Origin: Treponemataceae bacterium
GTDB taxonomy: Bacteria; Spirochaetota; Spirochaetia; Treponematales; Treponemataceae
DNA: 64,000 bases
Assembly: GCA_045597345.1 (NCBI GenBank)
Contig: JAZLJW010000047.1
Location: 26,437-90,436, forward strand
Reading direction: 5' to 3'
Shown: piece by piece, positions 13,217 through 35,622 of the stretch
How positions within the stretch are numbered: the stretch's first letter is position 1
How the letters are laid out: every line of letters begins with the position of its first letter
Notes under the pieces: model-generated
Told to the model about the DNA's origin: nothing
The model's input: the letters and a program-made list of their open reading frames with translations, nothing else
Database searches by the model: none
Program-made: the position numbers and the translations under genes

Positions 13217-13249
13217 GTTTAAAAACACAGTAAACAAAAACAGGTGTGT

Positions 13250-15775: not shown

Positions 15776-15827
15776 GGGTAGTGCATTATACCATATATTA
15801 TGGAAATCCCGGCAATGTATATTACCT

Positions 15828-15863
15828 TGAGTCAAGCTCAGACTGTCGGGCTTGGCTCAGGAT
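15828..15863. repeat. Family-A-related repeat (inverted-orientation type)
   Basis: TGAGTCAAGCTCAG...GCTTGGCTCAGGAT shares both blocks with 6720-6760. Confidence 0.6.
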
Positions 15864-17918: not shown

Positions 17919-17931
17919 ACGCTCTGATTCC

Positions 17932-18795
17932 TTACAGCTTCTGATTGCGGACAACCTTGATGGTGGCGCAGAAGTCTTCTTTTCCGTAGCCGGCATCCAT
18001 GGCAGCCTGATAAACACGCAGTGCGTTTGCTTCGCCGGGCATGCTTACACCGCATTCCTTGGCCAGGTTCATGCAGATGTTTACGTCTTTGTACTCGTTT
18101 TCAACACTGAAAGCGGTGGTGTAGTCTTCGTTGGCAATGGGGGTTTTCTTTCCGTCAAGATAGAAGTTCTGACCGCCACCGTAGCTGATAGCCTGAGCGT
18201 AGGTAAGAATATCAATGCCGTTGGCTGCAGCCAGGGTAGCGGTTTCGTTTACGCCGTTCTGAATCTGGGAAACAAGGGCGTTGTGGCAGATTTTCATGAC
18301 AAGACCCTTGCCGTTTTCTCCCATGCGGATAACGTTTTCGCCCATGTAGAGCAGAATGGGTTTCATGGCTTCGTATACGGCTTCGTCACCGCCAACATAA
18401 ATGCCCAGTTTTCCGGCAATGGCAGCTGGTTTTGATTTTACAACGGGAGCATCGATGAACTGAGCGCCGGTAGCTTTTACCATTTTGCTGATTTCTACGG
18501 ACACGCTGGGGTCGATGGTTGACATGTCGATGCAGGTTTTTCCGGCTTTCAGAACAGGGAGTACTTCGGTGTATACGGCGCGGCTGTGTTCTGATTTCGG
18601 TACCATGCTGATGATGACGTCAGCGTTTTCTGCAACTTCTTTTGAACTGGAGCAGGCTACGGCACCAATGGCGGCCAGCTGTTCAACCTTAGCGGTAACA
18701 AAGTCAAAAACGTACACTTTGTCATCGTGTTTCTTTACAATATTTTCGCACATGGACTCGCCCATAATTCCGAGCCCGATAAATCCAATTTTCAT
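17932..18795 (-). CDS. NAD(P)-dependent beta-hydroxyacid dehydrogenase (3-hydroxyisobutyrate / tartronate-semialdehyde / sulfolactaldehyde reductase family)
   Basis: 'MKIGFIGLGIMGESM' Rossmann motif, 287 aa. 'DAPV' and 'GGDE' blocks are typical of the family. Confidence 0.8.
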   Translation of the reverse strand: MKIGFIGLGIMGESMCENIVKKHDDKVYVFDFVTAKVEQLAAIGAVACSSSKEVAENADVIISMVPKSEHSRAVYTEVLPVLKAGKTCIDMSTIDPSVSVEISKMVKATGAQFIDAPVVKSKPAAIAGKLGIYVGGDEAVYEAMKPILLYMGENVIRMGENGKGLVMKICHNALVSQIQNGVNETATLAAANGIDILTYAQAISYGGGQNFYLDGKKTPIANEDYTTAFSVENEYKDVNICMNLAKECGVSMPGEANALRVYQAAMDAGYGKEDFCATIKVVRNQKL

Positions 18796-18815
18796 ATTTC
18801 TCCCCTAATAAAATC

Positions 18816-19037
18816 GTCATGTTGAACTAATAAACTTGTCATGCTGAACTTGATTCAGCATCTGGATTCCGAAACGAGTTCGGAATGACGCCCGAAAGTC
18901 CAGAATGACAATTTGTGTCAGATAATTGTTCTGTCCCACTTCTGCCGCCACGGATGGCGGCACAAAGCCCGTAGTTTTGCAAAGCAAAACTACAAACAAT
19001 TATCTGACAGGATGTCAGATAATTGTTCTGTCCCACG
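18816..19037. repeat. composite structured spacer: family-A unit plus hairpin, ATTCCGAA hairpin, family-C-like module, and a 24-nt direct repeat of the tal 3' end with an internal inverted copy
   Basis: TGTCAGATAATTGTTCTGTCCCAC occurs at 18916-18939 and 19013-19036; the second copy includes the tal stop codon. AACAATTATCTGAC at 18995-19008 is complementary to both. Confidence 0.75.
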
Positions 19038-19692
19038 CATCCTGGAATTTTGCCATACCGTAATCAGTGAAGGCATGGTACATGCTGTCTTTGTATACCT
19101 GCAGTCCTGCAGTTACGATATCAGCGCCGGCAACGGCACAGTCTACAATCTGTTTTCCGTTACGAACTGCGGCACAGATAATCTCGGTGGTGTAGCCGTA
19201 GTTGGCGTAGATGGTAGTAATGTCCTGAATGTACTGAACGCAGTCTTCGCCGCTGTTTTCTTTCCAGCCGATGAATGGAGAAACAAACAGTGAGCCGTTT
19301 TTAGCAGGCAGAATGGCCTGACTTGGGCTGAATACCAGCGTAACGTTGGTGCGGATGCCGGCTTTTTCCAGCTGGCGTGCTGCTGCAATACCTGCTTCTG
19401 TGCACGGAATTTTGATGACAAAGTTGGGGCACAGGGCTGCAATTTCTTTACCCATGGCAACCATGTCTTCGGTTTTGTCCAGATGTGGGTTGATTTCTAC
19501 AGAGATGGGGAATGTTTCCCAACCTTCAATGTTTTTTTCTTTTACGAAATCAGCCATCTGCTGCAGAACCTCTTTAAAAGGTTTTCCGCTGTTCATAATG
19601 TGGTTTGGGTTGGTGGTAACGCCATCAATGCCAAAGGTTTCGTAGGCTTCACGAATTTCATCGATTTTAGCACTGTCTAAAAAATATTTCAT
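19015..19692 (-). CDS. transaldolase-family protein, TalC / fructose-6-phosphate aldolase subgroup
   Basis: 'MKYFLDSAKIDEIREA...GVTTNP' and the Schiff-base-lysine context 'FVIKIPCT'. About 225 aa. SD AAGGAG. Confidence 0.8.
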   Translation of the reverse strand: MKYFLDSAKIDEIREAYETFGIDGVTTNPNHIMNSGKPFKEVLQQMADFVKEKNIEGWETFPISVEINPHLDKTEDMVAMGKEIAALCPNFVIKIPCTEAGIAAARQLEKAGIRTNVTLVFSPSQAILPAKNGSLFVSPFIGWKENSGEDCVQYIQDITTIYANYGYTTEIICAAVRNGKQIVDCAVAGADIVTAGLQVYKDSMYHAFTDYGMAKFQDAWDRTII

Positions 19693-19737
19693 ATTTCACT
19701 CCTTATCGTGATTATGTAGTTTCATTATTCAGTAATT

Positions 19738-19870
19738 GAAAAAACTACCGGCGTGATGTAAAAATGCAAAACCGCTCGATAACGTCGCTATAGGCGAAGC
19801 CCGGCAAGGAAACTATCGTTCCGGGCTTCGACAATTTTTGCATTTTTATCTCCCACCTATCGCTTTTTCA
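19738..19870 (+). repeat. Family-D nested-palindrome element, copy 1
   Basis: GAAAAAACTACCGGCGT..TAAAAATGCAAAA..CGTCGCTA..GAAGCCCGG-caaggaaactatcgtt-CCGGGCTTC..TTTTGCATTTTTA..CGCTTTTTC. Architecture is shared with 41709-41863 and 62125-62248. Confidence 0.75.
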
Positions 19871-21913
19871 GTCTCTTACTGTTGTTAACAAGTTCATAAG
19901 CCCTGAGATTTGCAAATCTGACTCTTTGCGCACGAATACTGGCGGCTGCCCCATGGGAGCTTCTACGGTGATGTCGCCTCCGTAGTATTCGCGGCCGGTC
20001 CATACATGTATCCATTTGTCATCGGGAAGCCAGCAGCGCCGGGTTGTGGCTCCCTGTATGTACACTGGGGCAACCAGCAGGTCACGTCCCAAAAGATACT
20101 CAAATTTTTCGCTATAGGCCCGCTCTTCGGTATCGTAGTGATAGAACAGAGGACGCATTACCGGTGTTCCGTGTGTTGCAGCCTGCTGTTCAAGATTCTG
20201 CAGATAGGGCGTCAGGTTACGGTACCATCCGGCACAGCGGGCAAACTGGGCAAGCAGTTCCGGTGTGTCACTGAACTGTACGTCGCGTCCTGGCTGGTTA
20301 CCTTCGTGGCTTCGGAACAGGGGGCTGAAGGCACACATCTCTGCCCAGCGCATCAGAAGTTCCGTACTGCGGGTCATATGCATTACGGTAGTATAACCGC
20401 CAACGTCACTGTGTGCCATGGGGTATCCACTCATGGCAAGACTGAGCGTTGCCGGAATAACGGATGCAAGACCGTCATCAACTGACCAGTCAACATGCTG
20501 GTCACCGGTCCACATTAAAGTACTGGTGCTGATGGTACCGGTGTGGCCTGCCCGGGTAAAGAAGAACACTTCTCCCAGTTTTCCGCATTCTTCTATGGCT
20601 TCACGGTTCATGCGGGCCCAAATGGCAGGCCACTGATTATGCAGTTCTGCCGCATCCTGACCACTGTACAGAACAGCGTCTACCGGCAAATACTCACCAA
20701 AATCGGCCATCCAGCCACCCATACCAATGCCAATCAGGTTTTTCTTGATGATTTCTTTATACCAGGCATAGGCTTCGGGGTTGGTAAAGTCAATCATGGC
20801 AGCGGGGAAGGTGGTAATGGTAACAAGATAATCTTTGCCCTCTGCATTCTTTACGCAGTAGCCTTTTTCGGCTGCTTCCTTATAAATGTTTTTTTCAAGG
20901 GCAATAAATGGATTGATGTATCCTAAAAAACGGACACCGTCAGCTTTCCACTTCTCAATATGCGCCGGCAGGTCTGCATACTGTTCCTGACTGTATTCCC
21001 AGTTCCACATAACCTGGTAGCCGAACTTTGTACAGCGGCAGCCACACCAGTCCTGACACCATACACCGGTTACCGGGATGCCGGCATCACGGGCTGCAGC
21101 AATTTTCCGGTCCACGTTGCCGCAGCCGTCGTTTTTCTGGCTGGTGACGCCTTTTTCAAAACTCCAGTCCTGCATGGCAAGAATGGCACCATCGTGTACC
21201 CATGAGGGCAATACTGGCGGTCGGCCAAGAACAGCAGAAAGATGCTCTGAAAGTTCAGTAAAGGAATTTGATCGTATCAGCTGCAGTTCCGGCGACTCCT
21301 GAAATTCCAGGGTTATGTGGTCGTCGGCTGTAAAGTCAAAAACGCTGTAGGTGTTTACATTGCAGTGAACGGCATATTTCCGGCTTGAAACAAAGGTTGG
21401 CTGTGCATAATACGACTCGTACCGGTCAAAGGGCAGTGTTTTGAACGGCCGCTTTCCCCTGAGTTTTTCTTTAATCAGCTTTTTTCCGATACGGCCGGCA
21501 TTCTGATGCTCGGCAACCCAGATACGAACTTTCTGTCCGCGTAAATCCAGTTCGCTGTATGTTTCACCACAGCCGTAAAAGTGTTCATCTTTTTTACAGG
21601 GTATTGAAATCCACCAGCGGTTAACGACACTGCCATCGCTCAGTACCGGATTATCTTCCACGCAGGAAAGGCTGAATCCGTCATCATGTATGGTAAGAAG
21701 AAAGCTGAGTGAATATGAACGGTCAGCATCGCAGTAAGTAAGCAGCCAGCCGTCATCTGTTCTGGTACGGTCGGTCTGCTTTAATGTTTTTTTCCAGAAA
21801 ACTTTGGTGTTATAGGTAAAACTACCGCGGCTCATGGAAAAACTGTTTTTTCCGCCACCAATAGCCACATCCAGCTGTACCAGATGATCCAGCTGATTCT
21901 GATTTTCTGACAT
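19868..21913 (-). CDS. GH31 alpha-glycosidase of the YihQ (sulfoquinovosidase-like) subfamily
   Basis: 'GGWMADFGEYLP' (nucleophile Asp), 'WTGDQHVDWS' (acid/base), 'HSDVGGYTT', 'TNPEAYAWYKEIIKKN' and 'CQDWCG..VMWNW' parallel E. coli YihQ as I recall it. Start at 'MSENQ' (SD GGGGAG) rather than the track start 21970. Confidence 0.8.
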   Translation of the reverse strand: MSENQNQLDHLVQLDVAIGGGKNSFSMSRGSFTYNTKVFWKKTLKQTDRTRTDDGWLLTYCDADRSYSLSFLLTIHDDGFSLSCVEDNPVLSDGSVVNRWWISIPCKKDEHFYGCGETYSELDLRGQKVRIWVAEHQNAGRIGKKLIKEKLRGKRPFKTLPFDRYESYYAQPTFVSSRKYAVHCNVNTYSVFDFTADDHITLEFQESPELQLIRSNSFTELSEHLSAVLGRPPVLPSWVHDGAILAMQDWSFEKGVTSQKNDGCGNVDRKIAAARDAGIPVTGVWCQDWCGCRCTKFGYQVMWNWEYSQEQYADLPAHIEKWKADGVRFLGYINPFIALEKNIYKEAAEKGYCVKNAEGKDYLVTITTFPAAMIDFTNPEAYAWYKEIIKKNLIGIGMGGWMADFGEYLPVDAVLYSGQDAAELHNQWPAIWARMNREAIEECGKLGEVFFFTRAGHTGTISTSTLMWTGDQHVDWSVDDGLASVIPATLSLAMSGYPMAHSDVGGYTTVMHMTRSTELLMRWAEMCAFSPLFRSHEGNQPGRDVQFSDTPELLAQFARCAGWYRNLTPYLQNLEQQAATHGTPVMRPLFYHYDTEERAYSEKFEYLLGRDLLVAPVYIQGATTRRCWLPDDKWIHVWTGREYYGGDITVEAPMGQPPVFVRKESDLQISGLMNLLTTVRD

Positions 21914-21928
21914 TTTCTCCCCTTTAAA

Positions 21929-21950
21929 GCCACCGTGGCAGCGGCAGCAC
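21929..21950 (-). promoter_or_regulatory. 5'-UTR stem-loop GTGCTGCCGC-tgcc-ACGGTGGC next to the SD of the GH31 gene
   Basis: The reverse complement of 21929-21950 matches the elements at 11837 and 33894. Confidence 0.5.
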
Positions 21951-22133
21951 CTCTTTTGAAATAACAGCACTATCAGTGTAAACCCGAATCGTCTATTATG
22001 CGAATAGTATTACTATCAGGCTATGCCAATCGTCATATTCCTTATTACGGACATCGCCTTTCTTTTTTACGATTTCCTATATCGTACCTACTATATATCT
22101 GCAACAGAAAAGAAGAATTATCAGGGGGAAAAG

Positions 22134-23900
22134 ATGAGAAGAGATTCATTACATGACTACATTGACATTGACGACGATGATACTGGAAATCAGAATGACA
22201 AAGATGTAAACATGAACGATATTTTCAGGGATATCGAACAGTCTGTATATGGTGATGACGTGCAGGAATCCATGATGGATACCCTGGTAATTCTTGCAGG
22301 ACAGCTGTCTTCAAAAGAAGAACAGAATAAGGACGAAGTAAAGAAACGGATTCAGATTGTGCATGATTACCTGGGCTATGGAACAGATTTTCAGATTATG
22401 CTCTTTACGCTGATATACAGTTGCTATCTGGAAAACGACTCGTCCATGTCCCTTAGAGAACTGGCCAAAGCGCTTCATATAGAATCCTATGAGCTGCAGC
22501 GTCATAAAAAGGCCTTTGATGATATGATCGAAAACAACATCCTCATGTATGCAGAACGTCGTGGCAGGCTTATCACCACTGATTTCGTCATTCCTGATTA
22601 TATTACCAATGCAATTCAGGATGAACGTCCTATTGATAAGCGCGAAGCACTGGCACGCAAAAGTATGAGTCGGTTTGTCGGTCAGATGTATAAGATGATG
22701 GATGACCAGGGGCCTTCTGCCATTCAGGCAGCTGTACGGATGGGTGAAAGAATGTGGAGAGACTGCGAAGGAGTACGCCGTCTGGTTGAAATGATTGAAG
22801 ATACCCGTCTTCGTGCCTGTTTGTATATCGTTATGCATTATCGGATGTTCAGAAATGAATCTGCCAGCATTGCAAAAATCATCAACGATCTGTATTCCAT
22901 TCCAAAAGAAAAAAATGAAGTTCGCAAGGAATTCATGAACGGTACCAACGAGCTGATTGAGAAAGGTCTTGTTGAAATGGAAGAAGCACCGGTTTTTGAA
23001 AACGCAGGAATCTATCTTACAGACGAAGCTCTTACAACCTTTCTTGGGGAAGAAGCTGAATCATTTCTGCTGAAAGGCGCCAATCCTGACCTGATTCAGT
23101 CTGCAGACATCGTGGAAAAACAGCTGTTCTACTCTGATGAAATGAACAAGCAGCTTGATACGCTTTATGGCATTATGGATAAGGAAAACTTTACCGCCAT
23201 GCAGCGCCGTCTTGATTCCAAAGGTATGAAAAAGGGCGTTGCCGTGCTGCTGTACGGGGCCCCCGGTACCGGTAAAACGGAATCGGTACTGCAGATTGCA
23301 AGGCAGACGAGTCGTGCCGTGCATCACGTTGATATCAGTGAAGCAAAAACATGCTTCTTTGGTGAAAGCCAGAAACGGGTAAAAAAAATCTTTACCAGCT
23401 ACAAAAAAGAATGCAAGGCTGCCGCAAAGAACAATGAACCACTGCCTATCCTGCTCTTGAATGAAGCCGATGCCCTTATTTCAAAACGCAAGGATAGTAA
23501 TTCGGGAAATGTTGCTCAGGAGGAAAATGCCATCCAGAATATTCTTCTGGAAGAAATTGAGAATCTGGAAGGAATTCTGATTGCTACTACCAACCTGCCG
23601 GATAACATGGATGCTGCATTTGAACGTCGTTTCCTGTTCAAGGTTAAGTATGAAAAACCGGATCTGGAAAGCCGCAAACAGATCTGGCGCAGTAAAATCA
23701 GCTGTCTTTCAGATGACGACATTGAAACGCTGGCTAAACGTTATGAATTCAGCGGTGGCGAAATTGACAATATCGTGCGGAAAATCGACATTGACGAAAT
23801 TCTTACCGGCAAAGAACCGGATATGGCGGCTGTAATCGAAATGTGCAACCACGAAAAGTTCAACAATGAAGAAATTCGTCACATCGGGTTCGGTGAGTAA
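22134..23900 (+). CDS. classical-clade AAA+ ATPase with a ~390-aa N-terminal region of unknown function (two wHTH-like modules)
   Basis: 'LLYGAPGTGKTE' Walker A, 'ILLLNEADAL' Walker B, 'TTNLPDNMDAAFERRF' sensor-1/Arg-finger region. Start at the ATG at 22134 (SD AGGGGGA). Confidence 0.8.
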   Translation: MRRDSLHDYIDIDDDDTGNQNDKDVNMNDIFRDIEQSVYGDDVQESMMDTLVILAGQLSSKEEQNKDEVKKRIQIVHDYLGYGTDFQIMLFTLIYSCYLENDSSMSLRELAKALHIESYELQRHKKAFDDMIENNILMYAERRGRLITTDFVIPDYITNAIQDERPIDKREALARKSMSRFVGQMYKMMDDQGPSAIQAAVRMGERMWRDCEGVRRLVEMIEDTRLRACLYIVMHYRMFRNESASIAKIINDLYSIPKEKNEVRKEFMNGTNELIEKGLVEMEEAPVFENAGIYLTDEALTTFLGEEAESFLLKGANPDLIQSADIVEKQLFYSDEMNKQLDTLYGIMDKENFTAMQRRLDSKGMKKGVAVLLYGAPGTGKTESVLQIARQTSRAVHHVDISEAKTCFFGESQKRVKKIFTSYKKECKAAAKNNEPLPILLLNEADALISKRKDSNSGNVAQEENAIQNILLEEIENLEGILIATTNLPDNMDAAFERRFLFKVKYEKPDLESRKQIWRSKISCLSDDDIETLAKRYEFSGGEIDNIVRKIDIDEILTGKEPDMAAVIEMCNHEKFNNEEIRHIGFGE

Positions 23901-23908
23901 TTACCGGC

Positions 23909-24151
23909 TTACAGGTAATCCAGCAGGTCCTTGCAGGTAACGGCGCTGCTGTGCAGTTGTTCGGCTCCACGGTGAGCGCAATAAATGCAGGAATGCTGGA
24001 TTTTGCCTTTTTCATTGGTAAAGCCTGCCGGGTAGGGGTAAAAAATGTGCTGCCCTGAAAAAAAGGAACATTCGGGGCAGCTGCAATATTTGCCGTCATC
24101 TGTTTTTATGGTATGGTTAACCGGATTTCCACAAACGGAACAGTAAATCAT
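23909..24151 (-). CDS. small Cys-rich zinc-ribbon protein
   Basis: 80 aa with 'CSVCG', 'CSCPEC' and 'HSCIYCAH'. SD AAGGAG. Lies 31 nt downstream of the sigma/WYL gene on the same strand. Confidence 0.55.
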   Translation of the reverse strand: MIYCSVCGNPVNHTIKTDDGKYCSCPECSFFSGQHIFYPYPAGFTNEKGKIQHSCIYCAHRGAEQLHSSAVTCKDLLDYL

Positions 24152-24182
24152 TTTTTCTCCTTAAAAGTCTCCGTGGCAGCCT

Positions 24183-25628
24183 TTACAGCACCTGTCCGAT
24201 ATGCCGGATCAGTACCTTTATGTAGGCTCCGGCATGAAAATCGTTTTGCAGCCGGAAGTGGGCATCCCGGTGTATTTCAAACGATGTCATGCGGTTCATT
24301 GAATACCATTGTAGCATGTTTTTCTCTTCCGAAAAAATCAGGGCAAGCCAGTCTCCATGGTACAGGAAAATGTAGTGGGGATGGCCGGTAACCGTATAGG
24401 TATTGTTATGGGTATCTGTATATTGGAATGAACAGGGAAAATGACGTCTTGCGCACAGAAAGCAGTCTGAGAACAGCTTGTAGTCGCAGTCTTTGTGCCC
24501 GGCATAGACTAAGGACAAATCCAACTGAATACCTATGGGTTCATCGTCTTGTATCAGGTCTTCTCCCAGGTTTGCACGGCCTTTCATTTCAATAAGAAGC
24601 GTAGAAAGAACTGTTTCAAAACTGTGTTTTACCGGCCCCTGAGGCAGCCCCCGCACAATATACTGCATGATGGAAACTGCCAGAAGGTCATCGGTGGTAA
24701 GCCCCAGAACATCCTCCTTATTCATCAGTTCGTATCCACGGTGTCTCCCCCGCAGTTCAAATACACAGCCTTTTATTTCCCTCAGGCGTTTTATTGACCG
24801 GCTTACTGTATCGCGGCAGTTAAACATGCCCGAAAGATCCCGGATAATGTCATCAGAATTGGGGTATTTCAGCTGCCCGTCACACCGCCCGTTGCTTTCT
24901 GCAATGTACCGTAGCAGCGCCATATCGTTTTCGCCGATAACATCGCCGGTTTTGTTGAACTTTGCCAGCTTTTTGTAATCCGGATGATTTACCAGAATCC
25001 GGTTTATTTCATTCAGGTCTTTCTTTACCTCATTAATTCTGTGTTTCTGACTGCCAGTCTTTTCATATTTGTCTGCCAGCTGGGGATACGTTAAGGGGCT
25101 TGCTCCTGCCACATTCTGTATTCCCAGCCGGTCAAAGAGCATGTCTATTCTGTCATCGTGTTCAGAATCAGGCAGATATTTCTGCAGGTACAGCCGCAAT
25201 TGTTTTCTGAGTTCTACCTCTTTTGATTCTTCTTCCAGAGCTTCACTTTCGCTTCGGTAGACGCGGGTATCTTCAACATGGTAGATACCGGCTTCAAAAT
25301 CTTTGTCTTCCTGTTCCTTTGCTTCCTTATCCGCATAGAACCTGGCTTCCCGCTTTTTTATGGCAGGAAGATCATTGATTCCCTTTAAGAATGCACCGCG
25401 GATAGGCTTCCACAAATAGGCCTCAATGGAATTGTTTTTTGATGAATCATATTTTTCAATCAGTTCAATCGCCACGTCATAGGCATAAAAAGCCTTCATG
25501 TCGTCCCATTCCCATTGGGTAATGTGACCAACCTGCAGTGTCGGATCTTTCTTGATATCAGAAATAACACGGTCAAAAAAATCAGATTTCGGATTTAAAA
25601 CATCCCATTTATCAGTGACTTCGCTCAT
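24183..25628 (-). CDS. fusion protein: sigma-70 region2/region4-like N-half plus wHTH plus WYL-like C-terminal domain
   Basis: 'DMKAFYAYDVAIELIEKYDSSKNNSIEAYLWKPIRGAFLKGIND' (region-2-like). 'LTYPQLADKYEKTGSQKHRINEVKKDLNEI' (region-4-like HTH). 'VSRSIKRLREIKG' (wHTH). 'HGDWLALIFSEEKNMLQWYSMNRMTSFEI' (WYL-like). Confidence 0.6.
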   Translation of the reverse strand: MSEVTDKWDVLNPKSDFFDRVISDIKKDPTLQVGHITQWEWDDMKAFYAYDVAIELIEKYDSSKNNSIEAYLWKPIRGAFLKGINDLPAIKKREARFYADKEAKEQEDKDFEAGIYHVEDTRVYRSESEALEEESKEVELRKQLRLYLQKYLPDSEHDDRIDMLFDRLGIQNVAGASPLTYPQLADKYEKTGSQKHRINEVKKDLNEINRILVNHPDYKKLAKFNKTGDVIGENDMALLRYIAESNGRCDGQLKYPNSDDIIRDLSGMFNCRDTVSRSIKRLREIKGCVFELRGRHRGYELMNKEDVLGLTTDDLLAVSIMQYIVRGLPQGPVKHSFETVLSTLLIEMKGRANLGEDLIQDDEPIGIQLDLSLVYAGHKDCDYKLFSDCFLCARRHFPCSFQYTDTHNNTYTVTGHPHYIFLYHGDWLALIFSEEKNMLQWYSMNRMTSFEIHRDAHFRLQNDFHAGAYIKVLIRHIGQVL

Positions 25629-25753
25629 ACATCACATTTTAGCACATTTTTTTTCATTTTTTATATTTATGTACGGCTTTTTCATACATAAATCGGATTT
25701 ATAAGGATGTACGGCAATAAAGCCTGAATCCAACGAACGCAAGGGGTAATCGT

Positions 25754-26449
25754 ATGAACGTAGTAGAAGCTTTTGTAAAATCAATCGGTGTAGGTCCGGT
25801 TCTTTCCCGGGAAGAAGAAGCAAAACTGATTTTGGCTGCCCAGAATGGCAGTGAAAAAGCAAAGAGACAGTTATTGCAGTCAAACATCCGGTTTATTGTC
25901 CAGACTGCCTGCAAAGGCAAATTCGCTTCCAGCTTTCTGGATGTTGAAGACAAACTGGTATGCGGCACCATGGGCTTTATGCATGCCGTAGAAAAATTCA
26001 ATGTAAACTCCGGCAACAAGCTGATTACCTATGCAAAGCACTGGATTGAAGAAGAAATCCGCAGCAACCTGATGAATTACGAACGTGCTATCCGTATTCC
26101 CCAGAACCAGCTGAAAAACCATACAGAAGGTCTTCCGGTATGCGACTATTCCCTGGATGCTCCCTGCGGCGAAGACAGCACTTCCTTCGGCGATTTATAC
26201 GAAGATGATATCTATGATTCTCCGGAAACTGCCTGGGAGAAAAAAGAACTGCGTTCAGAACTGGAATATTTCCTTGATACCCTTACCTCAGAAGAGTCGT
26301 ATATCATTCGGGCTTATTCCGGCTATGGCTTAGATAAGCCCCTGTCACTGCGCCAGATTGCTGAAAAGGTGAATGTAAGCCACAGCACAGTCCGCAATAT
26401 CCTGAAAAAAATCCGGGAACAGGCTGTGGAATACGGCCTTGCCGCCTGA
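25754..26449 (+). CDS. divergent sigma-70-family RNA polymerase sigma factor (231 aa, short or absent region 3)
   Basis: 'LSREEEAKLI', 'LLQSNIRFIVQTA', 'GTMGFMHAVEKFNVNSGNKLITYAKHWIEEEIRSNL' (region 2) and 'LSLRQIAEKVNVSHSTVRNILKKIRE' (region 4.2). Confidence 0.8.
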   Translation: MNVVEAFVKSIGVGPVLSREEEAKLILAAQNGSEKAKRQLLQSNIRFIVQTACKGKFASSFLDVEDKLVCGTMGFMHAVEKFNVNSGNKLITYAKHWIEEEIRSNLMNYERAIRIPQNQLKNHTEGLPVCDYSLDAPCGEDSTSFGDLYEDDIYDSPETAWEKKELRSELEYFLDTLTSEESYIIRAYSGYGLDKPLSLRQIAEKVNVSHSTVRNILKKIREQAVEYGLAA

Positions 26450-26454
26450 TCTGG

Positions 26455-26582
26455 CATGCTGAACTTGACTATGAATGATGATAACCAGTCATGCTGAGCT
26501 TGATAATGAATGTTGATAACCTGTCATGCTGAGCTTGACTATGAATGATGATAACCTGTCATGCTGAGCTTGTCTCAGCATC
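26455..26582. repeat. three 35-bp tandem repeats plus a terminal hairpin copy (family-A variant)
   Basis: CATGCTGARCTTGAYWATGAATGWTGATAACCWGT units start at 26455, 26490 and 26525. A fourth, partial unit forms ATGCTGAG-cttgt-CTCAGCAT (26561-26581). Confidence 0.85.
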
Positions 26583-26671
26583 TCGCCTGCAATTTTTACG
26601 AACGGAATAATTCAACCTATAGTAGTGTTTGTAAAAACGAATGCAAAGAATAACGTCATAAAGGGGAATAC

Positions 26672-28129
26672 ATGGGACGTTTAACTAACCTGGTGTATAC
26701 CGGAATTGAAGTTTGCCGTGAATCAAAGGTGCCGGTACTGTTTGTATCAAATCCTGGCTACGGCAAAACCACGCTGGTCAAAAAATGGGCCGAAACCAAC
26801 AATTATCACGTAGAAACAATCATCGGGTCTTCGTTTGCAAAAGAAGAAGTACAGGGATATCAGGTTAATACCGGCAAAAAACATCTGGAATTTCTTGAGC
26901 CTTACTGGTATACCCGCATCATGAATGAACACAAAGTCGGCCGTCCTACCATTCTTTTCATCGATGAACTTTCTACAGCCCCCTCAGAAGTTCAGGGATC
27001 CCTTTTCCGCCTGATTTTTGACCGCTGCATCGGTAATGGAGACCTTCTGCCGGAAGACACTCTGATTATTTCTGCCGCCAACTATAAGGAAAACCTGCCT
27101 GATTATTTTGAAATTACCGCCCCGGCCCTGAACAGATTCTGCGTCATTAATCTGCTTCCCCGTTCTCCCCAGGAAGTGGTTCAGGAATTTCTTTCACCCA
27201 TTGATGATGTTCCTGAATATACCCGTATGGAACAGTCTGAAGAAGAGCGGTCTCAGATCAGACAGAAACTGCAGCAGGAACTGTGCAGTCTGATTGTTAC
27301 GTATCCTGAAGAATCTTTTGACAGCAGGAATAAGTCATTTCACGACGTGTACAGTGACAGCCCGGACAATCAGAAACGTGTTCTGAATTTCATGTCTGGC
27401 AGAACCATCAGTTATCTTGCCGAAGTTATCATAGCCATACGAACCCTGTCATTGAAGATCGGAAATCCCTATATCGATGAAGCCCTGGACGGACTTGTCG
27501 GTCTTGGTACCAATAATTTTGCCTCAGAAAAGGAGCATGCTGCCTATCTGCAGTCGCTGCACAAGATCATGAAAGGAGTCATTTTCAATCTGGCAAAACG
27601 GGAATTCACCGCTGATGAGCTTATGGATAAATCTGTTTCAGAAATCATTACAGAAATGCATCAGCTGGCTGACAGTCTGGAACTTACAGAAAAAAGCGCA
27701 ACCTTATTCTGTCAGGTCATGAGTACTAAATTAAATGACTATGCACGCAATATTTCACGGATGGTTTCAACAAACCGGGATTTCCTCTGGTCAGAAGCAA
27801 AAGCTGCACAAATGCTGACTCAGATTGCAAATAAGGTTCACCTGCGGGATACCGTTTCTTTAACAGCGGTAAAGACCATAGCGGATGTACTTTTATCACT
27901 GCTGGGAGAGAAAAAGGGTAAGAATGTTGATTTCAGTCTTGTCCGTATTATTGACGAGCGGGGTAGTATTTGCGAAACAGTTCTGCAGCGCCAGAATCGT
28001 GTGTTTACCACCTGTGCCCTGACTTCCGGCATCATACCGGTTAATCACTATGACCTGTTTGAACGTGTGGTATCTGTCTACGACGGACGCTGCTGGATGC
28101 CACTGCAGAAATACTTAATGGCGGTGTAA
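26672..28129 (+). CDS. MoxR/AAA_5-like ATPase with a ~300-aa C-terminal extension
   Basis: 'VSNPGYGKTTL' P-loop, 'ILFIDELSTAP' Walker B, 'ISAANY..ALNRF' and 'SGRTISYL' lid/sensor-2-like. SD AAGGGG. Confidence 0.75.
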   Translation: MGRLTNLVYTGIEVCRESKVPVLFVSNPGYGKTTLVKKWAETNNYHVETIIGSSFAKEEVQGYQVNTGKKHLEFLEPYWYTRIMNEHKVGRPTILFIDELSTAPSEVQGSLFRLIFDRCIGNGDLLPEDTLIISAANYKENLPDYFEITAPALNRFCVINLLPRSPQEVVQEFLSPIDDVPEYTRMEQSEEERSQIRQKLQQELCSLIVTYPEESFDSRNKSFHDVYSDSPDNQKRVLNFMSGRTISYLAEVIIAIRTLSLKIGNPYIDEALDGLVGLGTNNFASEKEHAAYLQSLHKIMKGVIFNLAKREFTADELMDKSVSEIITEMHQLADSLELTEKSATLFCQVMSTKLNDYARNISRMVSTNRDFLWSEAKAAQMLTQIANKVHLRDTVSLTAVKTIADVLLSLLGEKKGKNVDFSLVRIIDERGSICETVLQRQNRVFTTCALTSGIIPVNHYDLFERVVSVYDGRCWMPLQKYLMAV

Positions 28130-29461
28130 ATGTTTGCGCAGTTTAATTCCGTACTCCAGAAACTGCAGTACCTGCCGGTGGATGTGCAGTGGATTCCAAA
28201 ACAGGCAGGGACAGTAACGGCCAGAAGTTTTTATGATTCGAAAACCCGCTGTTATGTCATTCAGACTCCGCAAGTTGAAGGTCTTTTTATGCATGAAGCA
28301 GGCCATATTCTGTTTCAGCATAACCGGTATTCAGAACTGGCTCATCAGGCTGCAGATTTGGTCTTTGAAAACCAGCTTGCCAGATATTTTCCCGACCTGA
28401 AAAAAGACAGTCCCAGACGCAATGAAATGGTGCATTATGTTTTGAACATGGCAATGGACTGTGAAGTTAATTCAAAGCTCTTTTCCCCTTATGAACAGGA
28501 GTTGCTGGCAGATACAATCAAAAAAACGTTCCGTGTTCCATCAGGGGGAATTTTCCCCAAAGATTTGGGAATGGAAGACGGTCAGTCCTATCTGTTTTAC
28601 CTGCAGAAAATGACGGTAAAAAAGGAGTTGGGGAAAGAAATTGTTAAACAGGCGAATGGGTATACGTGGGTTAAGGAGTTAACCGAAGGTCAGATTGCAT
28701 CAAAACTGCGCACACTGGCCCGGAATCTTGAAAAAGACAACACTATGCCTGATGGCAGTCAGATTACCATTTACCGGCAGCAGACTCCTGAAGACTATGA
28801 TTCCGGTTCAATGGGTATAAAACCAGGACCTCTGCCAGCAGGCGCAAAAAACACGGCTCCCGGTTCCGGTTCGGGCAGTGGAAAACGGATTACGGTGCAG
28901 GGTAAGCATTATGATTCTCTGGAAGAGGCAGTGCATCAGGTGATGCCGAAGAAGGTAAAGGGCAGTCGCAGTGACCCGGTGTACAACTACAACAGAAGGA
29001 AACAGGGAAATACCGGGGTTCTTATCAGTAAATATGTAGAAAGAGAGCGGTATTTGAATCCGGCCGTGTATATTCTGGTGGACTGTTCCGGTTCCATGGA
29101 CCGGAGTACTCTTGATGATGTGGTTACAACGCTTAAAAATACACGGTTTCACAAGCGGTCAAAGATAGTGTTCTGGGATACCGGGTTACTGTCTGAGGTT
29201 TCGTATGAAGACCGGAATAAGATACATGATTTTCCTTCTGGCGGGGGAACCAATATGGCATTGGGAATCAGGTATATCGGGAAGACGTTTAAGGACGATG
29301 ATAACCTGATTGTTATCAGCGATTTCTTCGACAATCTTGATGCCATAGAAAAAGCGCTGGTGGATACGGGAATTAAATCACGACATTTGATGGTTGCAAG
29401 CAGGGGGTACAACCAGGGTATTGAGAGGATTCGCGGTTTTAATCTTTTTGCTCTGAAATAA
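28130..29461 (+). CDS. HExxH metallopeptidase-like N-domain plus vWA C-domain protein (DUF2201_N/DUF2201, COG3864-like)
   Basis: 'MHEAGHILFQH'. MIDAS 'LVDCSGSM', 'GGGTNMALG' and 'VISDFFD'. The ATG directly abuts the MoxR stop (TAAATG). Confidence 0.75.
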   Translation: MFAQFNSVLQKLQYLPVDVQWIPKQAGTVTARSFYDSKTRCYVIQTPQVEGLFMHEAGHILFQHNRYSELAHQAADLVFENQLARYFPDLKKDSPRRNEMVHYVLNMAMDCEVNSKLFSPYEQELLADTIKKTFRVPSGGIFPKDLGMEDGQSYLFYLQKMTVKKELGKEIVKQANGYTWVKELTEGQIASKLRTLARNLEKDNTMPDGSQITIYRQQTPEDYDSGSMGIKPGPLPAGAKNTAPGSGSGSGKRITVQGKHYDSLEEAVHQVMPKKVKGSRSDPVYNYNRRKQGNTGVLISKYVERERYLNPAVYILVDCSGSMDRSTLDDVVTTLKNTRFHKRSKIVFWDTGLLSEVSYEDRNKIHDFPSGGGTNMALGIRYIGKTFKDDDNLIVISDFFDNLDAIEKALVDTGIKSRHLMVASRGYNQGIERIRGFNLFALK

Positions 29462-29530
29462 CAGATTATTATTTTACGATTGGCATTTTCGAATCTAGAT
29501 TAATGGTGTCAGAGATAAGGAGATGTGCAG

Positions 29531-29707
29531 ATGAAAACCGTAAATACCGAAAGAAACACCAGCAAAAAAGCAGTTCAGTCAGGATCTTTTGAAGCCGTAT
29601 ATTTTCTGGCAGATAAAATGGCGCAGCAGGCTGCCAGCAAATACCGCACATCAAACCCAAGACGTTTTGTCCGCAATACTCCCGGCATTTTCCGCAGATA
29701 TGCATGA
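29531..29707 (+). CDS. small basic hypothetical protein (58 aa)
   Basis: SD TAAGGAGA lies 8 nt upstream of the ATG at 29531. No recognisable motif. Confidence 0.35.
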   Translation: MKTVNTERNTSKKAVQSGSFEAVYFLADKMAQQAASKYRTSNPRRFVRNTPGIFRRYA

Positions 29708-29714
29708 GGTTTTA

Positions 29715-29885
29715 ATGAAATCAAAAAAAGAGCCAGAAAAAGAGTGGACTCTGATAAAACCAAGGAATGATTTTTTGAGTTACGAAGGTCTCTGGAAAAA
29801 CTGTATTTTACGCTCAGAACATACACAATGTTTGGAACCCGCAGTCCGTTTGGTGGCGAAGGTGATTACAACTGGGAATTCATAA
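29715..29885 (+). CDS. small hypothetical ORF overlapping the next ORF (possible frameshifted N-terminus of 29828..30250)
   Basis: ATG at 29715 with GAGG 6 nt upstream. It overlaps 29828..30250 by 58 nt in another frame. Confidence 0.25.
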   Translation: MKSKKEPEKEWTLIKPRNDFLSYEGLWKNCILRSEHTQCLEPAVRLVAKVITTGNS

Positions 29886-30250
29886 ATCTTGAAAAAGTTG
29901 CTGCAGGAGAAATGGAGTATGTCTGCTGGCAGCCAGAAGACCTTCCCTATAACAAAGGTCAGAACGTATACAATGTGGAAGACGCAAAGCAGCTATGGAC
30001 ATTGCAGGTAATCTCTACTATTTGTAGCATGCTTGCTCAAATCAGTATGATAAAGGAATTTGAATCAGAGTTCAGTACATATCCCTTATGGCTGAGATCA
30101 CGCTGTGAATTTGCCTGCTACCGGTTCATGCCCTTGTTCAACGAATATCTTAGGAAGGACCCGGATTGCGGGTACCTGGCAGACCGTACTTTTCTTCCAG
30201 TCGAAAATCTGATTCCCAGCCGCCTTCCCGACAAAAAACAGGCTCACTGA
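29828..30250 (+). CDS. hypothetical protein (140 aa)
   Basis: ORF with protein-like composition. No motif recognised. Confidence 0.45.
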   Translation: MFGTRSPFGGEGDYNWEFINLEKVAAGEMEYVCWQPEDLPYNKGQNVYNVEDAKQLWTLQVISTICSMLAQISMIKEFESEFSTYPLWLRSRCEFACYRFMPLFNEYLRKDPDCGYLADRTFLPVENLIPSRLPDKKQAH

Positions 30251-30289: not shown

Positions 30290-30427
30290 GAATATGGCGC
30301 CATGGACGCCAAAAAAATTGGCGCCACGGATGGCGCCATAAACGTCGGGTTTGTTGGCATGGAAGCCAAAAAAATTCGCGCCACGGATGGCGCCATAACT
30401 GTTGAGTTTTGCGCTAGCAAAACTCAG
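30290..30427. repeat. Family-C repeats, two tandem ~58-bp copies plus GAGTTTTGC-gcta-GCAAAACTC hairpin
   Basis: GGCGCCATGGACGCCAAAAAAATTGGCGCCACGGATGGCGCCATAAACGTCGGGTTT, then GGCATGGAAGCCAAAAAAATTCGCGCCACGGATGGCGCCATAACTGTTGAGTTTTGC. Confidence 0.8.
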
Positions 30428-30430
30428 TAA

Positions 30431-30458
30431 GTTGGTCTGACAGGGATGTCAGACCAAC
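30431..30458 (-). terminator. 12-bp stem hairpin immediately downstream of the UPF0210 gene
   Basis: GTTGGTCTGACA-ggga-TGTCAGACCAAC. There is no clean T-run, so function as a terminator is uncertain. Confidence 0.4.
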
Positions 30459-32344: not shown

Positions 32345-33826
32345 ATGATAGAAACAATCACCAATGTAAACAACACAATCAACGGCATTGTATGGGGTAC
32401 CTTCGGTATCGCACTGCTGTTTATTGCCGGCGTTGTCATGACCGTTGTAAACAAGGGGTTCCAGTTTTCTCACTTTGTCCACTGGAACAAAAAGACCCTT
32501 GGGGCCATTTTCAAAGATAAACACGTAACAACTCATACTGGCAAAGAAGATAAATCAATTTCACAGTTTCAGAGCCTTTGTACGGCCCTTGCTGCAACCA
32601 TTGGTACCGGTAATATCGTAGGTGTTGCTACCGCCATCATCAAAGGTGGTCCGGGTGCTATTTTCTGGATGTGGGTTATGGCACTGTTCGGCATGATGAC
32701 CAATTACTCAGAAAACGTTCTGGGTATTTTCTACCGCCGCAAGAATGACCGCGGTGAATGGAACGGTGGTGCCATGTACTACCTTTCTGACGGTCTTGGC
32801 GCTTTTAAAGGATTCAAACACGTAGGAAAAATCCTTGCAGTCCTTTTTGCCGTTTTCTGCCTTCTGGCAAGTTTCGGTATTGGTAACATGAGTCAGGTAA
32901 ACTCTATCTCCGGAAACATGGAAAGTGCCTTTAATATTCCGCCATTCGTTACCGGTATTGCTCTGGTTATCCTTTCAAGCCTGGTAATTGTGGGTGGCCT
33001 TAAGCGTATTGCAAAAGTTACCGAAAAACTGGTTCCCTTCATGGCACTTGCTTATATCGTATTTGCCCTGATTGTTGTTTTTGCCCATATCGGAACCATC
33101 GGCCCCGTATTTGCTTCTATCTTTAAGGGTGCTTTCGGTGCCAAAGCTGTTGGCGGCGGTGTGCTGGGTTACGGCATTAAAATGGCCATTACCTGGGGGT
33201 TCAAACGCGGTGCTTTCAGTAACGAAGCCGGTCTTGGTTCTTCTGTAATGGTTCACTCAAGCAGTAACGTTAAGGAACCGGTTCGTCAGGGTATGTGGGG
33301 TATCTTTGAAGTATTTGCAGATACCATCGTTGTATGTACTCTTACAGCCCTTGTTATCCTTTCAAGTGGTCTGGTAGACCTGAACACCGGTATGATGATC
33401 AGCGGTAACGCCGGTGCCGGCCTTGTTGGAGAGGCTTTTGCTACCGTATTCGGAAAATTCGGACCTGCATTCATTGCCCTTGCCATTCTTCCTTTTGCCT
33501 ATTCAACCGTTCTTGGCTGGAGCCACTATGGTTCGCAGGCCTTTGAATACCTGTTTGGCCGTAACTCCGTAGTATTCTACAAATGTTTCTTTGTCGTAGT
33601 AATTTACTTTGGCTGCACCATGAGCCTTGATCTGGCCTGGGATCTTTCTGATACCTTCAACGGTCTTATGATGATTCCTAACCTGATTGGTGTTCTGGCA
33701 TTAAGCGGTGTTGTTGCAAAGGTTACCAAAAACTACGTAGACCGTGAACTTCGTGGCCTTGATGTAAAACCCATGTACTCAGCATTCCCTGAAGTACAGG
33801 CTGCAGAAGAAGAGCGCGAAGACTGA
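32345..33826 (+). CDS. alanine/glycine:cation symporter (AGCS) family transporter
   Basis: 'SQFQSLCTALAATIGTGNIVGVATAI..GGPGAIFWMW'. Start at 'MIETI' with SD AAGAGG. Confidence 0.8.
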   Translation: MIETITNVNNTINGIVWGTFGIALLFIAGVVMTVVNKGFQFSHFVHWNKKTLGAIFKDKHVTTHTGKEDKSISQFQSLCTALAATIGTGNIVGVATAIIKGGPGAIFWMWVMALFGMMTNYSENVLGIFYRRKNDRGEWNGGAMYYLSDGLGAFKGFKHVGKILAVLFAVFCLLASFGIGNMSQVNSISGNMESAFNIPPFVTGIALVILSSLVIVGGLKRIAKVTEKLVPFMALAYIVFALIVVFAHIGTIGPVFASIFKGAFGAKAVGGGVLGYGIKMAITWGFKRGAFSNEAGLGSSVMVHSSSNVKEPVRQGMWGIFEVFADTIVVCTLTALVILSSGLVDLNTGMMISGNAGAGLVGEAFATVFGKFGPAFIALAILPFAYSTVLGWSHYGSQAFEYLFGRNSVVFYKCFFVVVIYFGCTMSLDLAWDLSDTFNGLMMIPNLIGVLALSGVVAKVTKNYVDRELRGLDVKPMYSAFPEVQAAEEERED

Positions 33827-33893
33827 CCAACCCGAAATAATTACAATTCCCTTAAAACTCCTTTTATGATAATAATCAGTTAATTTTTATCAT

Positions 33894-33915
33894 GTGCTGC
33901 CGCTGCCGCGGTGGC
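33894..33915 (+). promoter_or_regulatory. 5'-UTR stem-loop GTGCTGCCGC-tgcc-GCGGTGGC next to the SD
   Basis: Identical stem to 11837-11858. It lies 5 nt upstream of AAGGAG. Confidence 0.55.
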
Positions 33916-33934
33916 TTTTAAGGAGTTTTTATTT

Positions 33935-34753
33935 ATGAAAAAATTGACTATTCTGGCAGGTATTCTGCTGGCCGTAAGCCTCCTTGCCGGCTGTGCTTCT
34001 ACCCCTATTCCTGAAGCTGACGTGGGATACTACCCAACAGAAGCGGAGTTTTCTGAAGATCAGGTAACCGTAGTTATCAAACTGTCACTTGCCGTACAGA
34101 AATTTGACGGTGAAACCTATGACCTGCTGAACAAATTCGGTGTGATTAAAACCATGCACACCAATGCCGGTGTTCATACCTTTGGTATTCTCTACCAGAA
34201 CGGAAATTCCTACACCATTTTCCCTATCACCATCATCACCAATCTTAAAGCTGGTCACACCTATGATCTGGCCTATACCATTACCGGAAGCAAGATCGAT
34301 TACGATTGTATCGACCGCGAAGACGGATCCAGTGCAAAACTTGATCTGGATGCTCTTGAAGGCAAATCAGACAACGTTATTTCAACATTCATCGGAGCTG
34401 TTCTGAACCCGACTATGGATGATGTAGGACAGACTGTCGTACAGGAAAACGATGACTGGAAACTGACCAGCTATCCGTTCATGAAATTCTCTCTGGAAAA
34501 TAAAGCAACCGGTGAAGTTATTGAAGGATACAGAGGCTTTGTTACTGATTTCTCTTTCTCTAAAGGTGATGTATACCTGGATGTGGCTGAATACGCTTCA
34601 AAAGATGAATTCCTGGATTCAGACTATCAGAAGACTGCCCGCTATCACATGACTGTTACTGCCTGTGATGGTGATACCGTTACCTACACCTTTGTTCGTC
34701 CTGAAGAAAAGAAAGGTCAGACAGTAACCCTGAATATCTCTGTTATTGACTGA
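33935..34753 (+). CDS. hypothetical lipoprotein
   Basis: 'MKKLTILAGILLAVSLLAGCAS' lipobox. ATG at 33935 after AAGGAG. Confidence 0.65.
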   Translation: MKKLTILAGILLAVSLLAGCASTPIPEADVGYYPTEAEFSEDQVTVVIKLSLAVQKFDGETYDLLNKFGVIKTMHTNAGVHTFGILYQNGNSYTIFPITIITNLKAGHTYDLAYTITGSKIDYDCIDREDGSSAKLDLDALEGKSDNVISTFIGAVLNPTMDDVGQTVVQENDDWKLTSYPFMKFSLENKATGEVIEGYRGFVTDFSFSKGDVYLDVAEYASKDEFLDSDYQKTARYHMTVTACDGDTVTYTFVRPEEKKGQTVTLNISVID

Positions 34754-34762
34754 CCTGATTGA

Positions 34763-35608: not shown

Positions 35609-35622
35609 GTGTACCTGATATC

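Follow-up and report, generated by a model that had tools for sequence, protein, structure and literature searches.

A candidate sigma-controlled accessory module built largely from phage-type genes in a Treponemataceae genome

Introduction

PafBC and DriD are WYL-domain activators that contact RNA polymerase or sigma, and BrxR and CapW are WYL-domain repressors of defence systems. Extracytoplasmic function (ECF) sigma factors of the ECF41/42 type carry regulatory C-terminal extensions. Here we describe an 8-kb block at 22134-30250 of a 64,000-nucleotide stretch of DNA from a Treponemataceae bacterium, a gut spirochete (contig JAZLJW010000047.1, positions 26,437 to 90,436; 'the window'), in which a protein with sigma-like and WYL halves stands beside an alternative sigma factor, a MoxR ATPase, a metallopeptidase-vWA protein and a classical AAA+ ATPase. 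With moderate confidence, we favour the reading that the block arrived by horizontal transfer and is an accessory module, made up for the most part of phage-type genes, that has a transcription circuit of its own; it would be WYL-sensed and sigma-driven, with ATP-dependent protein remodelling or cleavage as its output.

The individual parts of the block belong to known kinds. A MoxR ATPase paired with a metallopeptidase-vWA protein has been reported in group 2.2 jumbo phages (Iyer, Anantharaman, Krishnan, Burroughs and Aravind 2021, Viruses 13:63; PMC7824862), where it is proposed to act as a virion-assembly chaperone with peptidolytic processing (PMC7824862). A dedicated sigma system, DdvS/DdvA, controls a CBASS-CRISPR island (PMC11506125). 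In the searchable literature we found no description of the sigma-WYL fusion family or of its pairing with a cognate sigma, nor of sigma and sigma-WYL proteins coupled to a phage-type MoxR/vWA-peptidase pair and an AAA+ ATPase under a private promoter. An earlier reading of this DNA, made from its letters alone (the first-pass annotation), had called the block an undescribed module; within the literature searched, that description stands for the sigma-WYL fusion and sigma coupling, but not for the MoxR and metallopeptidase-vWA pair.

Results

Layout of the block

According to the open reading frame (ORF) map and the comparison with a close relative, the genes of the block are as follows:

22134-23900, plus strand: AAA+ ATPase gene (588 aa; Walker A GAPGTGKTE)
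23909-24151, minus strand: Cys-rich ORF (80 aa; putative zinc ribbon)
24183-25628, minus strand: sigma-WYL fusion gene (481 aa)
25754-26449, plus strand: alternative sigma gene (231 aa)
26672-28129, plus strand: MoxR gene (485 aa; SNPGYGKTT, ILFIDE)
28130-29461, plus strand: metallopeptidase-vWA gene (443 aa; HEAGH, DCSGSM)
29525-29707, plus strand: small basic ORF (~60 aa; homolog only in a close relative)
29700-30250, plus strand: 183-aa ORF (uninterrupted in the relative, split in the window)

In the ORF map and translations, every gene and quoted motif of the first-pass annotation lay where it had been placed. Its domain calls were supported for nearly all of the proteins by profile and structure searches: AAA+, sigma-70, sigma-like/winged helix-turn-helix (wHTH)-WYL, MoxR/AAA_5 and HExxH/MIDAS vWA (MIDAS, metal-ion-dependent adhesion site).

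A shared promoter-like motif precedes the plus-strand units

Three sites in the block, P1 to P3, share the same promoter-like motif:

P1, 22065-22090, plus strand: TTTTACGA-N15-CTACTATA; 46 nt upstream of the AAA+ start codon
P2, 26594-26619, plus strand: TTTTACGA-N15-CTATAGTA; upstream of the MoxR-vWA operon
P3, 29472-29497, plus strand: TTTTACGA-N15-CTAGATTA; upstream of the small ORFs

The full form common to the sites is TTTTACGA-N15-CTAnnnTA, in which thirteen specified bases are identical and identically spaced. Its core, TTTTACGA-N15-CTA, has exactly three matches on the two strands of the 64 kb, where 0.03 would be expected, and none of 100 shuffles reached three. All of the sites are intergenic, on the plus strand and inside the block, with 30-55 nt between the CTA element and the start codon that follows, and all are conserved in the relative described below. 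The motif can be read as a -35 element TTTACG and a -10 element TAnnnT with a spacing of 16-17 nt, and a generic sigma-70 scan also flagged P2 (TTTACG-17-TATAGT). It is not present upstream of the sigma gene or of the 481-aa gene. Because P1 falls inside a longer alternative ORF that starts at 22023, the start at 22134 is favoured for the AAA+ gene. Taken together, P1-P3 suggest co-regulation of the three plus-strand units, and are the strongest internal evidence for it.

Pairwise gene links recur in independent loci

Three of the four loci with context (the window, L034 and L044) carry the sigma and sigma-WYL genes as a divergent pair, the sigmas of L034 and L044 being 37% and 28% identical, respectively, to the 231-aa sigma. 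In L004, a MoxR 50% identical to that of the window is followed by its vWA partner and then by a sigma 30% identical to the 231-aa sigma, in an operon lying between carB and a RelA_SpoT-type gene. These loci provide gene-neighbourhood links of the kind that the first-pass annotation proposed to look for. The links sigma/sigma-WYL, sigma/MoxR-vWA and AAA+/MoxR-vWA each recur independently, and only in the window were all of them seen together.

Around the L004 operon, a site TACGA-N15-CTATATT lies at 8185, past the sigma gene, and a near-match lies upstream of an 839-aa gene; the number of matches is at chance level. The 839-aa protein (L004 1919-4438) matches phrog_8308 at 2.8e-86. The RelA_SpoT-domain protein (L004 8592-9581, 329 aa) is possibly a small alarmone synthetase or a toxic small alarmone synthetase (toxSAS).

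These observations bear on the simplest alternative, namely that the genes are unrelated neighbours at a variable chromosomal spot, without functional coupling, and that the motif is an ordinary housekeeping promoter. In its favour, the MoxR-vWA pair occurs without the other block genes in most loci, a generic promoter scan shows no excess of promoter-like sites in the region, and the GC content of the block is only slightly below that of its flanks. Set against these points, the motif stands upstream of exactly three plus-strand units and nowhere else in the 64 kb, and the pairwise linkages recur. Because of the shared motif and the recurrent links chance adjacency is unlikely, and we rate this account as very improbable.

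The sigma factor and the divergent region

By its profile matches, the 231-aa protein is an alternative sigma factor of the sigma-70 family, with regions 2 and 4 joined by a short linker. It scored 77.2 bits with TIGR02937 (cutoff 42.9) and 29.4 bits with Sigma70_r4 (5.5e-7; cutoff 24.1), and matched phrog_351 at 3e-42; Sigma70_r2 reached 19.6 bits, under its 24-bit cutoff. The 125-bp divergent region between the 481-aa and sigma genes contains two direct copies of TTTATAnnnATGTACGGC, 38 bp apart (25660-25715; repeat family D16). Within the 64 kb ATGTACGGC is found at just these two sites, with 0.28 expected, and the direct repeats are a candidate operator that would serve the divergent promoter.

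Downstream of the sigma gene there is a 35-bp tandem repeat (26451-26572, plus strand; 3.5 copies, Tandem Repeats Finder score 202), the unit of which includes the left arm of the hairpin GCTGAGCTTGTCTCAGC that follows the gene. The first-pass annotation had counted three 35-bp repeats amongst the parts of the module. The array is present, but it is not a functional part: the relative is short of exactly 105 bp, corresponding to three units, and the array is for this reason regarded as non-essential, a variable-number, strain-variable expansion of the sigma terminator region. The same difference in length ruled out the repeats as iterons or operators.

The sigma-WYL fusion and its small neighbour

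The 481-aa protein is the rarest part of the block: an exhaustive HMMER search of 1.84 billion representatives gave 12 homologs. Across this family the Pfam matches were to WYL (PF13280; 8/12), WCX (5/12) and Sigma70_r2 (5/12, best 6e-8). The family profile matched PafBC at 9e-14, and its positions 51-185 aligned to regions 2-4 of SigA/HrdB at ~1e-7. Foldseek comparison of an AlphaFold2 (AF2) model (predicted local distance difference test score, pLDDT, 74) returned PafBC, BrxR, DriD and CapW with E-values of 1e-6 to 1e-4. By itself, the window protein matched WYL at an E-value of 0.016 only and FliA/WhiG (residues 31-86) at 0.004, and its N-half had no direct Pfam sigma match. The predicted architecture, a sigma2 plus sigma4-like N-half followed by a wHTH plus WYL C-half, thus stands at the level of the family.

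As in PafBC, DriD, BrxR and CapW, the C-half is predicted to fold as wHTH plus WYL, and the gene is divergent from its presumed target. In contrast to these proteins, the N-terminus is predicted to be a sigma-70-like sigma2-sigma4 module and not just a helix-turn-helix, and there is no WCX domain, the window protein ending ~30 residues past the WYL barrel; nor does any BREX, CBASS or DNA-damage regulon gene adjoin the 481-aa gene. The arrangement also resembles that of the ECF41/42 sigmas, in that a putative two-domain sigma (sigma2 plus sigma4) carries a sensory or regulatory module at its C-terminus and no anti-sigma is evident, but here the extension is wHTH-WYL and the sigma-like module is very divergent.

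The 481-aa gene starts divergently from the 231-aa sigma gene, and the Cys-rich ORF lies 31 nt downstream of it. The latter has the pattern CxxC...CxCxxC...CxxC, and all of its matches are sub-threshold (FmdB Zn-ribbon, 0.004; Zn_ribbon_Nudix, 0.028; phrog_7682, 3e-4). It is putatively co-transcribed with the 481-aa gene and could be an anti-sigma-like partner.

A scan of viral contigs with the sigma-WYL alignment gave no match, and the other family members are located in cellular contexts. One sigma-WYL-WCX member (P0026; L043 1-9765) has a giant ORF of >3,900 residues immediately upstream of it and a GH2-like gene on its downstream side.

A sigma-WYL fusion that recurs beside a second sigma would offer a new and compact way of tying a nucleic-acid signal directly to promoter selection. 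A bolder proposal, and one that we consider unlikely to hold, is that the 481-aa protein belongs to a class of ligand-gated sigma factor not described before, with a sigma2-sigma4 module and a wHTH-WYL nucleic-acid sensor in a single polypeptide. With its cognate partner sigma it would form a two-sigma switch that, in this Treponema lineage, drives the phage-derived double-ATPase/peptidase set from private promoters. If true, this switch would be a sigma-controlled conflict or stress module of a new kind, common to spirochetes and their large phages.

The MoxR and metallopeptidase-vWA pair

The MoxR protein matched AAA_5 (PF07728; 36.8 bits, 4.6e-9, cutoff 22) and phrog_1297 (1e-25), and its GYGKTT and LFIDE motifs are invariant in 19 MoxR homologs. 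In Foldseek searches the AF2 model (pLDDT 83) was closest to NorQ of the NorQ-NorD(vWA) complex and to the MoxR protein CHU_0153; a C-terminal extension of ~300 aa is helical and beta. The MoxR stop and the vWA start abut (28129/28130).

When the vWA protein was aligned with 18 homologs, residues H55, E56, H59, D318, S320, S322, T374 and D398 were invariant, corresponding to HExxH and a full MIDAS. For the window protein the Pfam matches were below cutoff (VWA_2, 19.5 bits; VWA_CoxE, 16.9 bits), there was no direct above-threshold match to DUF2201_N or DUF2201, and phrog_1314 was matched at 2.6e-13. Distant members of the alignment do match DUF2201_N (4/19, best 3e-43) and DUF2201 (6/19, best 2e-21), and homologs match VWA_CoxE. 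From these conserved residues and family matches, the 443-aa protein is predicted to be a zincin-like metallopeptidase fused to a MIDAS vWA domain, similar to DUF2201/COG3864. Two viral homologs (L019 5085-7379 and L020 5274-7514) lack HExxH, having TIEFCH and TIELAH, respectively, and carry low-complexity insertions, several hundred residues long, in which Gln, Gly, Ser and Asp abound; judged from these sequences, they are probably peptidase-dead variants.

The pair was present in about 25 retrieved loci, in most of which the vWA gene follows the MoxR gene immediately or at a distance of no more than a few hundred bp. Six of the loci are contigs of Treponema or Spirochaetaceae metagenome-assembled genomes (MAGs). 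Other pair loci are viral contigs of up to 386 kb, one with a tail-tube gene and a DnaC-like loader; still others are phage-like and also encode DNA polymerase A, QueC, Clp protease and NrdD. The 386-kb contig IMGVR_UViG_3300028591_000070 (L016, L017) has two MoxR homologs ~128 kb apart, and in a Spirochaetaceae contig (L010) a complete MoxR-vWA pair is immediately preceded by a partial vWA gene, which suggests tandem pairs.

Amongst cultured phages, a tblastn search with the vWA protein found nothing, and the MoxR and AAA+ proteins matched cultured-phage proteins only over the ATPase region (~140-200 residues, 25-33% identity). Scans of viral contigs with single proteins likewise found nothing. 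An ORF adjoining the MoxR of Vibrio phage phiKT1024 was tried as a vWA homolog and ruled out (hhalign probability 0.05). Three metagenome loci in which a sigma precedes MoxR (L035-L037) were discarded as unrelated: the sigma is RpoH/RpoD-like and accompanied by DnaJ and MerR, and the MoxR is a housekeeping AAA_3 type with an M20 peptidase.

The window pair resembles that of the group 2.2 jumbo phages in its order (MoxR, then an N-terminal HExxH peptidase with a C-terminal vWA), and its relatives lie on viral contigs. Unlike the jumbo-phage pair it is chromosomal, with no virion genes nearby, and is preceded by a dedicated sigma and a promoter-like motif; its MoxR has the extra C-terminal region, and the cultured-phage similarity of ~30% is confined to the P-loop domain. 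The comparison with NorQ-NorD and RavA-ViaA is similar in kind. NorQ is the best structural match of the MoxR model and the vWA partner has a complete MIDAS, but the partner also has a fused zincin, no respiratory-enzyme client is encoded nearby, and identity is 13-16%. MoxR had no match to bpMoxR (PF20030) at E<=0.1 and no third conserved partner was found across the loci; the bpMoxR domain and third component of the vWA-MoxR-VMAP / beta-propeller ternary conflict systems (Kaur et al. 2020) thus appear to be absent from the block.

The AAA+ ATPase

On profile evidence the 588-aa protein is a classical-clade AAA+ ATPase, matching Pfam AAA at 4.9e-23 (residues 371-504), the D2 domain of VAT/CDC48/p97 at 3e-30 and phrog_3757 at 1e-37. 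Its N-terminal ~350 residues are helical and matched nothing; the two wHTH-like modules that the first-pass annotation had placed in the N-region are putative. Full-length orthologs in three viral contigs (L021, L022 and L025; 33% identity, residues 133-586, 6e-72) sit ~2.6 kb downstream of the MoxR-vWA pair, and weaker relatives adjoin the pair in two Treponema loci. A scan with the AAA+ alignment (A6) gave generic AAA+ matches only.

Conservation in a close relative and the possibility of a phage remnant

The sole near-identical sequence is contig JAZLGC010000039 from a Treponemataceae MAG (SGB_4284), which has the same block in the same place at 97.7-98.6% DNA identity. Its contig ends just left of the AAA+ gene, and the left block junction is known from the window alone. 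Nei-Gojobori ratios of nonsynonymous to synonymous substitution rates (dN/dS) between the two strains were:

AAA+ gene: 0.06
481-aa gene: 0.08
231-aa sigma gene: 0.09
MoxR gene: 0.10
vWA gene: 0.18

The large ORFs are therefore maintained under purifying selection and are not decaying. The Zn-ribbon ORF is also present in the relative, with 0 nonsynonymous changes. Where the first-pass annotation had left the number of small ORFs at two or three, small ORFs do exist at 29525-30250, and the relative shows two genes (58 aa and 183 aa), the window copy of the latter being split. At ~29771-29776 there is a run of T6 in the window vs T7 in the relative (L001 7733-7739), and through this 1-nt difference the 183-aa ORF becomes pieces of 98 aa and 140 aa; the split could reflect an error of assembly, or else a pseudogene or phase variation by slippage.

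The absence of an integrase, tRNA or phage structural gene claimed by the first-pass annotation held for ~13 kb leftward and ~10 kb rightward. Scans of the window found zero tRNAs and zero Rfam families, neither flank has a mobility gene, no flanking direct repeats (att-like) above chance were found around the block, and the block had no megablast match in the phage or plasmid collections. The hallmarks of a prophage or integrative element (integrase, tRNA, att repeats, structural or conjugation genes) are absent.

These data have to be weighed against a second explanation: that the block is a domesticated or residual fragment of a large Treponema phage, comprising a phage middle/late sigma, a MoxR/peptidase-vWA pair for virion assembly or maturation and an AAA+ morphogenesis or replication factor, either left over or serving a phage or satellite elsewhere, and would not be a host signalling module. 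Four of the proteins match PHROG families (phrog_3757, 351, 1297 and 1314), and the closest non-orthologous relatives of the AAA+, MoxR and vWA proteins occur together on viral contigs of 68-386 kb, including the one with tail-tube and loader genes. The description of the pair in jumbo phages (PMC7824862) and the frameshift in the last ORF of the block point in the same direction. However, the missing integrase, tRNA, att-like repeats and structural genes within 10-13 kb, the lack of any DNA match to known phages or plasmids, and the large ORFs intact in two strains, with the low dN/dS values above, count against such a remnant. Moreover, in six Treponema MAGs the MoxR-vWA pair occurs alone in ordinary chromosomal contexts, and the sigma-WYL family is cellular wherever its members were located. 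On balance we consider a phage remnant unlikely.

A model for the sigma-driven module

Under the preferred reading of a horizontally acquired, sigma-driven module, the WYL domain would bind a nucleic-acid-derived signal, for example single-stranded DNA as for PafBC, DriD and CapW. With its ligand bound, the fusion protein would act differently on the divergent promoter, via the two ATGTACGGC candidate operators. The 231-aa sigma would then be produced or released and guide RNA polymerase to P1-P3, so that the outputs of the circuit would be the MoxR/vWA-peptidase machine, the AAA+ unfoldase-like ATPase and the two small proteins. A MoxR hexamer may grip its target via the vWA MIDAS as adaptor, as in NorQ-NorD or RavA-ViaA, and the fused zincin domain may cleave the gripped target; the classical AAA+ ATPase might unfold or disassemble the same or another target. 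Such a module could act in anti-phage or abortive-infection defence, in superinfection exclusion, or as a domesticated phage chaperone function.

The block puts a phage-type MoxR and peptidase-vWA pair under a definable regulatory input in a cellular genome, and its candidate promoters and candidate operator give a testable handle on what that pair does. It is also a record of genes having moved between very large phages and uncultured Treponema of the gut or rumen.

Several observations weigh against the model. The motif was recognised post hoc, and its likeness to a generic sigma-70 promoter (TTTACG-17-TAnnnT) means that the housekeeping sigma could use P1-P3. Few loci support each link (three for sigma/sigma-WYL, two for sigma/MoxR-vWA and four to six for AAA+/MoxR-vWA), and the compared loci were themselves retrieved using these block proteins as queries. 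The L043 sigma-WYL protein has no adjacent sigma. In six Treponema MAG loci the MoxR-vWA pair is on its own amid ordinary genes (in the two long contigs its neighbours are histidine kinases, iron-transport genes and Mfd), and the pair therefore does not need the sigma module. The block is known in just one related genome. Finally, a PADLOC run of the kind suggested in the first-pass annotation returned domain-level similarity only, and no defence system.

Comparison with sigma-controlled and ATPase-based defence systems

The first-pass annotation read the block as a candidate regulatory/conflict module. The WYL, sigma and MoxR-vWA calls on which this was based are supported, but PADLOC detected no known system and phages carry the same effector genes. 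Because three block proteins have their best relatives on phage contigs, a defence role is just one option.

In its strongest form the defence explanation holds that the block is a bona fide anti-phage system, in which a WYL sensor would de-repress on infection, the sigma would amplify the response, and the MoxR/vWA-peptidase pair and AAA+ ATPase would be abortive-infection effectors that destroy phage or host proteins. Consistent with this, the WYL half resembles the defence-system regulators BrxR and CapW, the PADLOC comparison places the AAA+ domain near IetA (5e-26) and the sigma domain near MzaA (5e-16), and DdvS/DdvA provide a precedent for a sigma-controlled defence island (PMC11506125). 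A RelA_SpoT-type synthetase neighbours the L004 operon, and the family is rare and patchily distributed. The PADLOC and NCBIfam similarities are, however, at the level of domains and far under their cutoffs; the block lacks an IetS protease as well as any nuclease, TIR or pore-forming effector; its flanks hold no other defence genes; and phages themselves carry the same ATPase-peptidase genes. We regard this explanation as unlikely.

The individual comparisons are as follows. Like DdvS/DdvA and MZA, the block associates a dedicated sigma-70-family protein with an accessory island, and the 231-aa sigma matches MzaA at the domain level. Unlike them, it has no transmembrane anti-sigma, no CBASS or CRISPR genes and no MzaB-E genes. 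Membership of MZA was ruled out (NF041931, 76 bits vs a cutoff of 800; no other Mza match). IetA is the closest PADLOC model to the AAA+ domain of the 588-aa protein, and, as in IetAS, there is a protease gene close by. The N-terminal 350 aa of the 588-aa protein are unrelated, however, and the protease is a zincin-vWA protein coupled to a second ATPase. Membership of IetAS was also ruled out (NF042959, IteA, 82.6 bits vs a cutoff of 510), there being no subtilase IetS and no serine protease in the block.

Flanking genes and strain-variable regions

The first-pass annotation had taken 'family-C' repeats (30290-30458) as the right border of the block. This was not borne out: the repeats are terminator-like palindromes (30301-30409) downstream of the minus-strand DUF711 gene, with a copy at 11561. 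The GC-rich palindrome TTGGCGCCACGGATGGCGCCAT is dispersed (11561-11582, 30318-30339 and 30375-30396), downstream of convergent or terminal genes. These elements look like dispersed, terminator-type repetitive extragenic palindromic (REP) sequences, with two tandem copies behind DUF711, and not like an island border.

The left flank (8.8-22 kb) encodes an MFS transporter, a carboxylesterase, an ABC sugar transporter, an AraC regulator, an isomerase, DUF4867, a dehydrogenase, a transaldolase-like protein and GH31, and the right flank has DUF711, ACT and Na/Ala symporter genes. The block is bounded in this way by sugar-catabolic genes on one side and housekeeping genes on the other. Within the left flank, a minus-strand run (15890-21970) comprises the isomerase, with Fucose_iso_C, DUF4867, an NAD_binding_2 dehydrogenase, a transaldolase/FSA-like protein and GH31, with the AraC, ABC and MFS transporter genes upstream of it at 8794-15835. 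This run tentatively resembles a sulfoquinovose (sulfo-transaldolase) catabolic cluster.

A 32-nt stretch at 21911-21942 is 84% identical to 24149-24180, the two copies spanning the ribosome-binding site and start codon of the GH31 gene and of the Zn-ribbon ORF, respectively (minus strand). This repeat may have been left behind by recombination or may serve both genes as a translation signal; the contig of the relative breaks near the first copy. To the right of the block, the two strains diverge sharply at 33822-41117 (vs L001 11785-15532), with 73-79% identity or unalignable sequence. Because glycosyltransferase family 8 and acyltransferase genes are encoded there, this region is a strain-variable surface-glycan locus.

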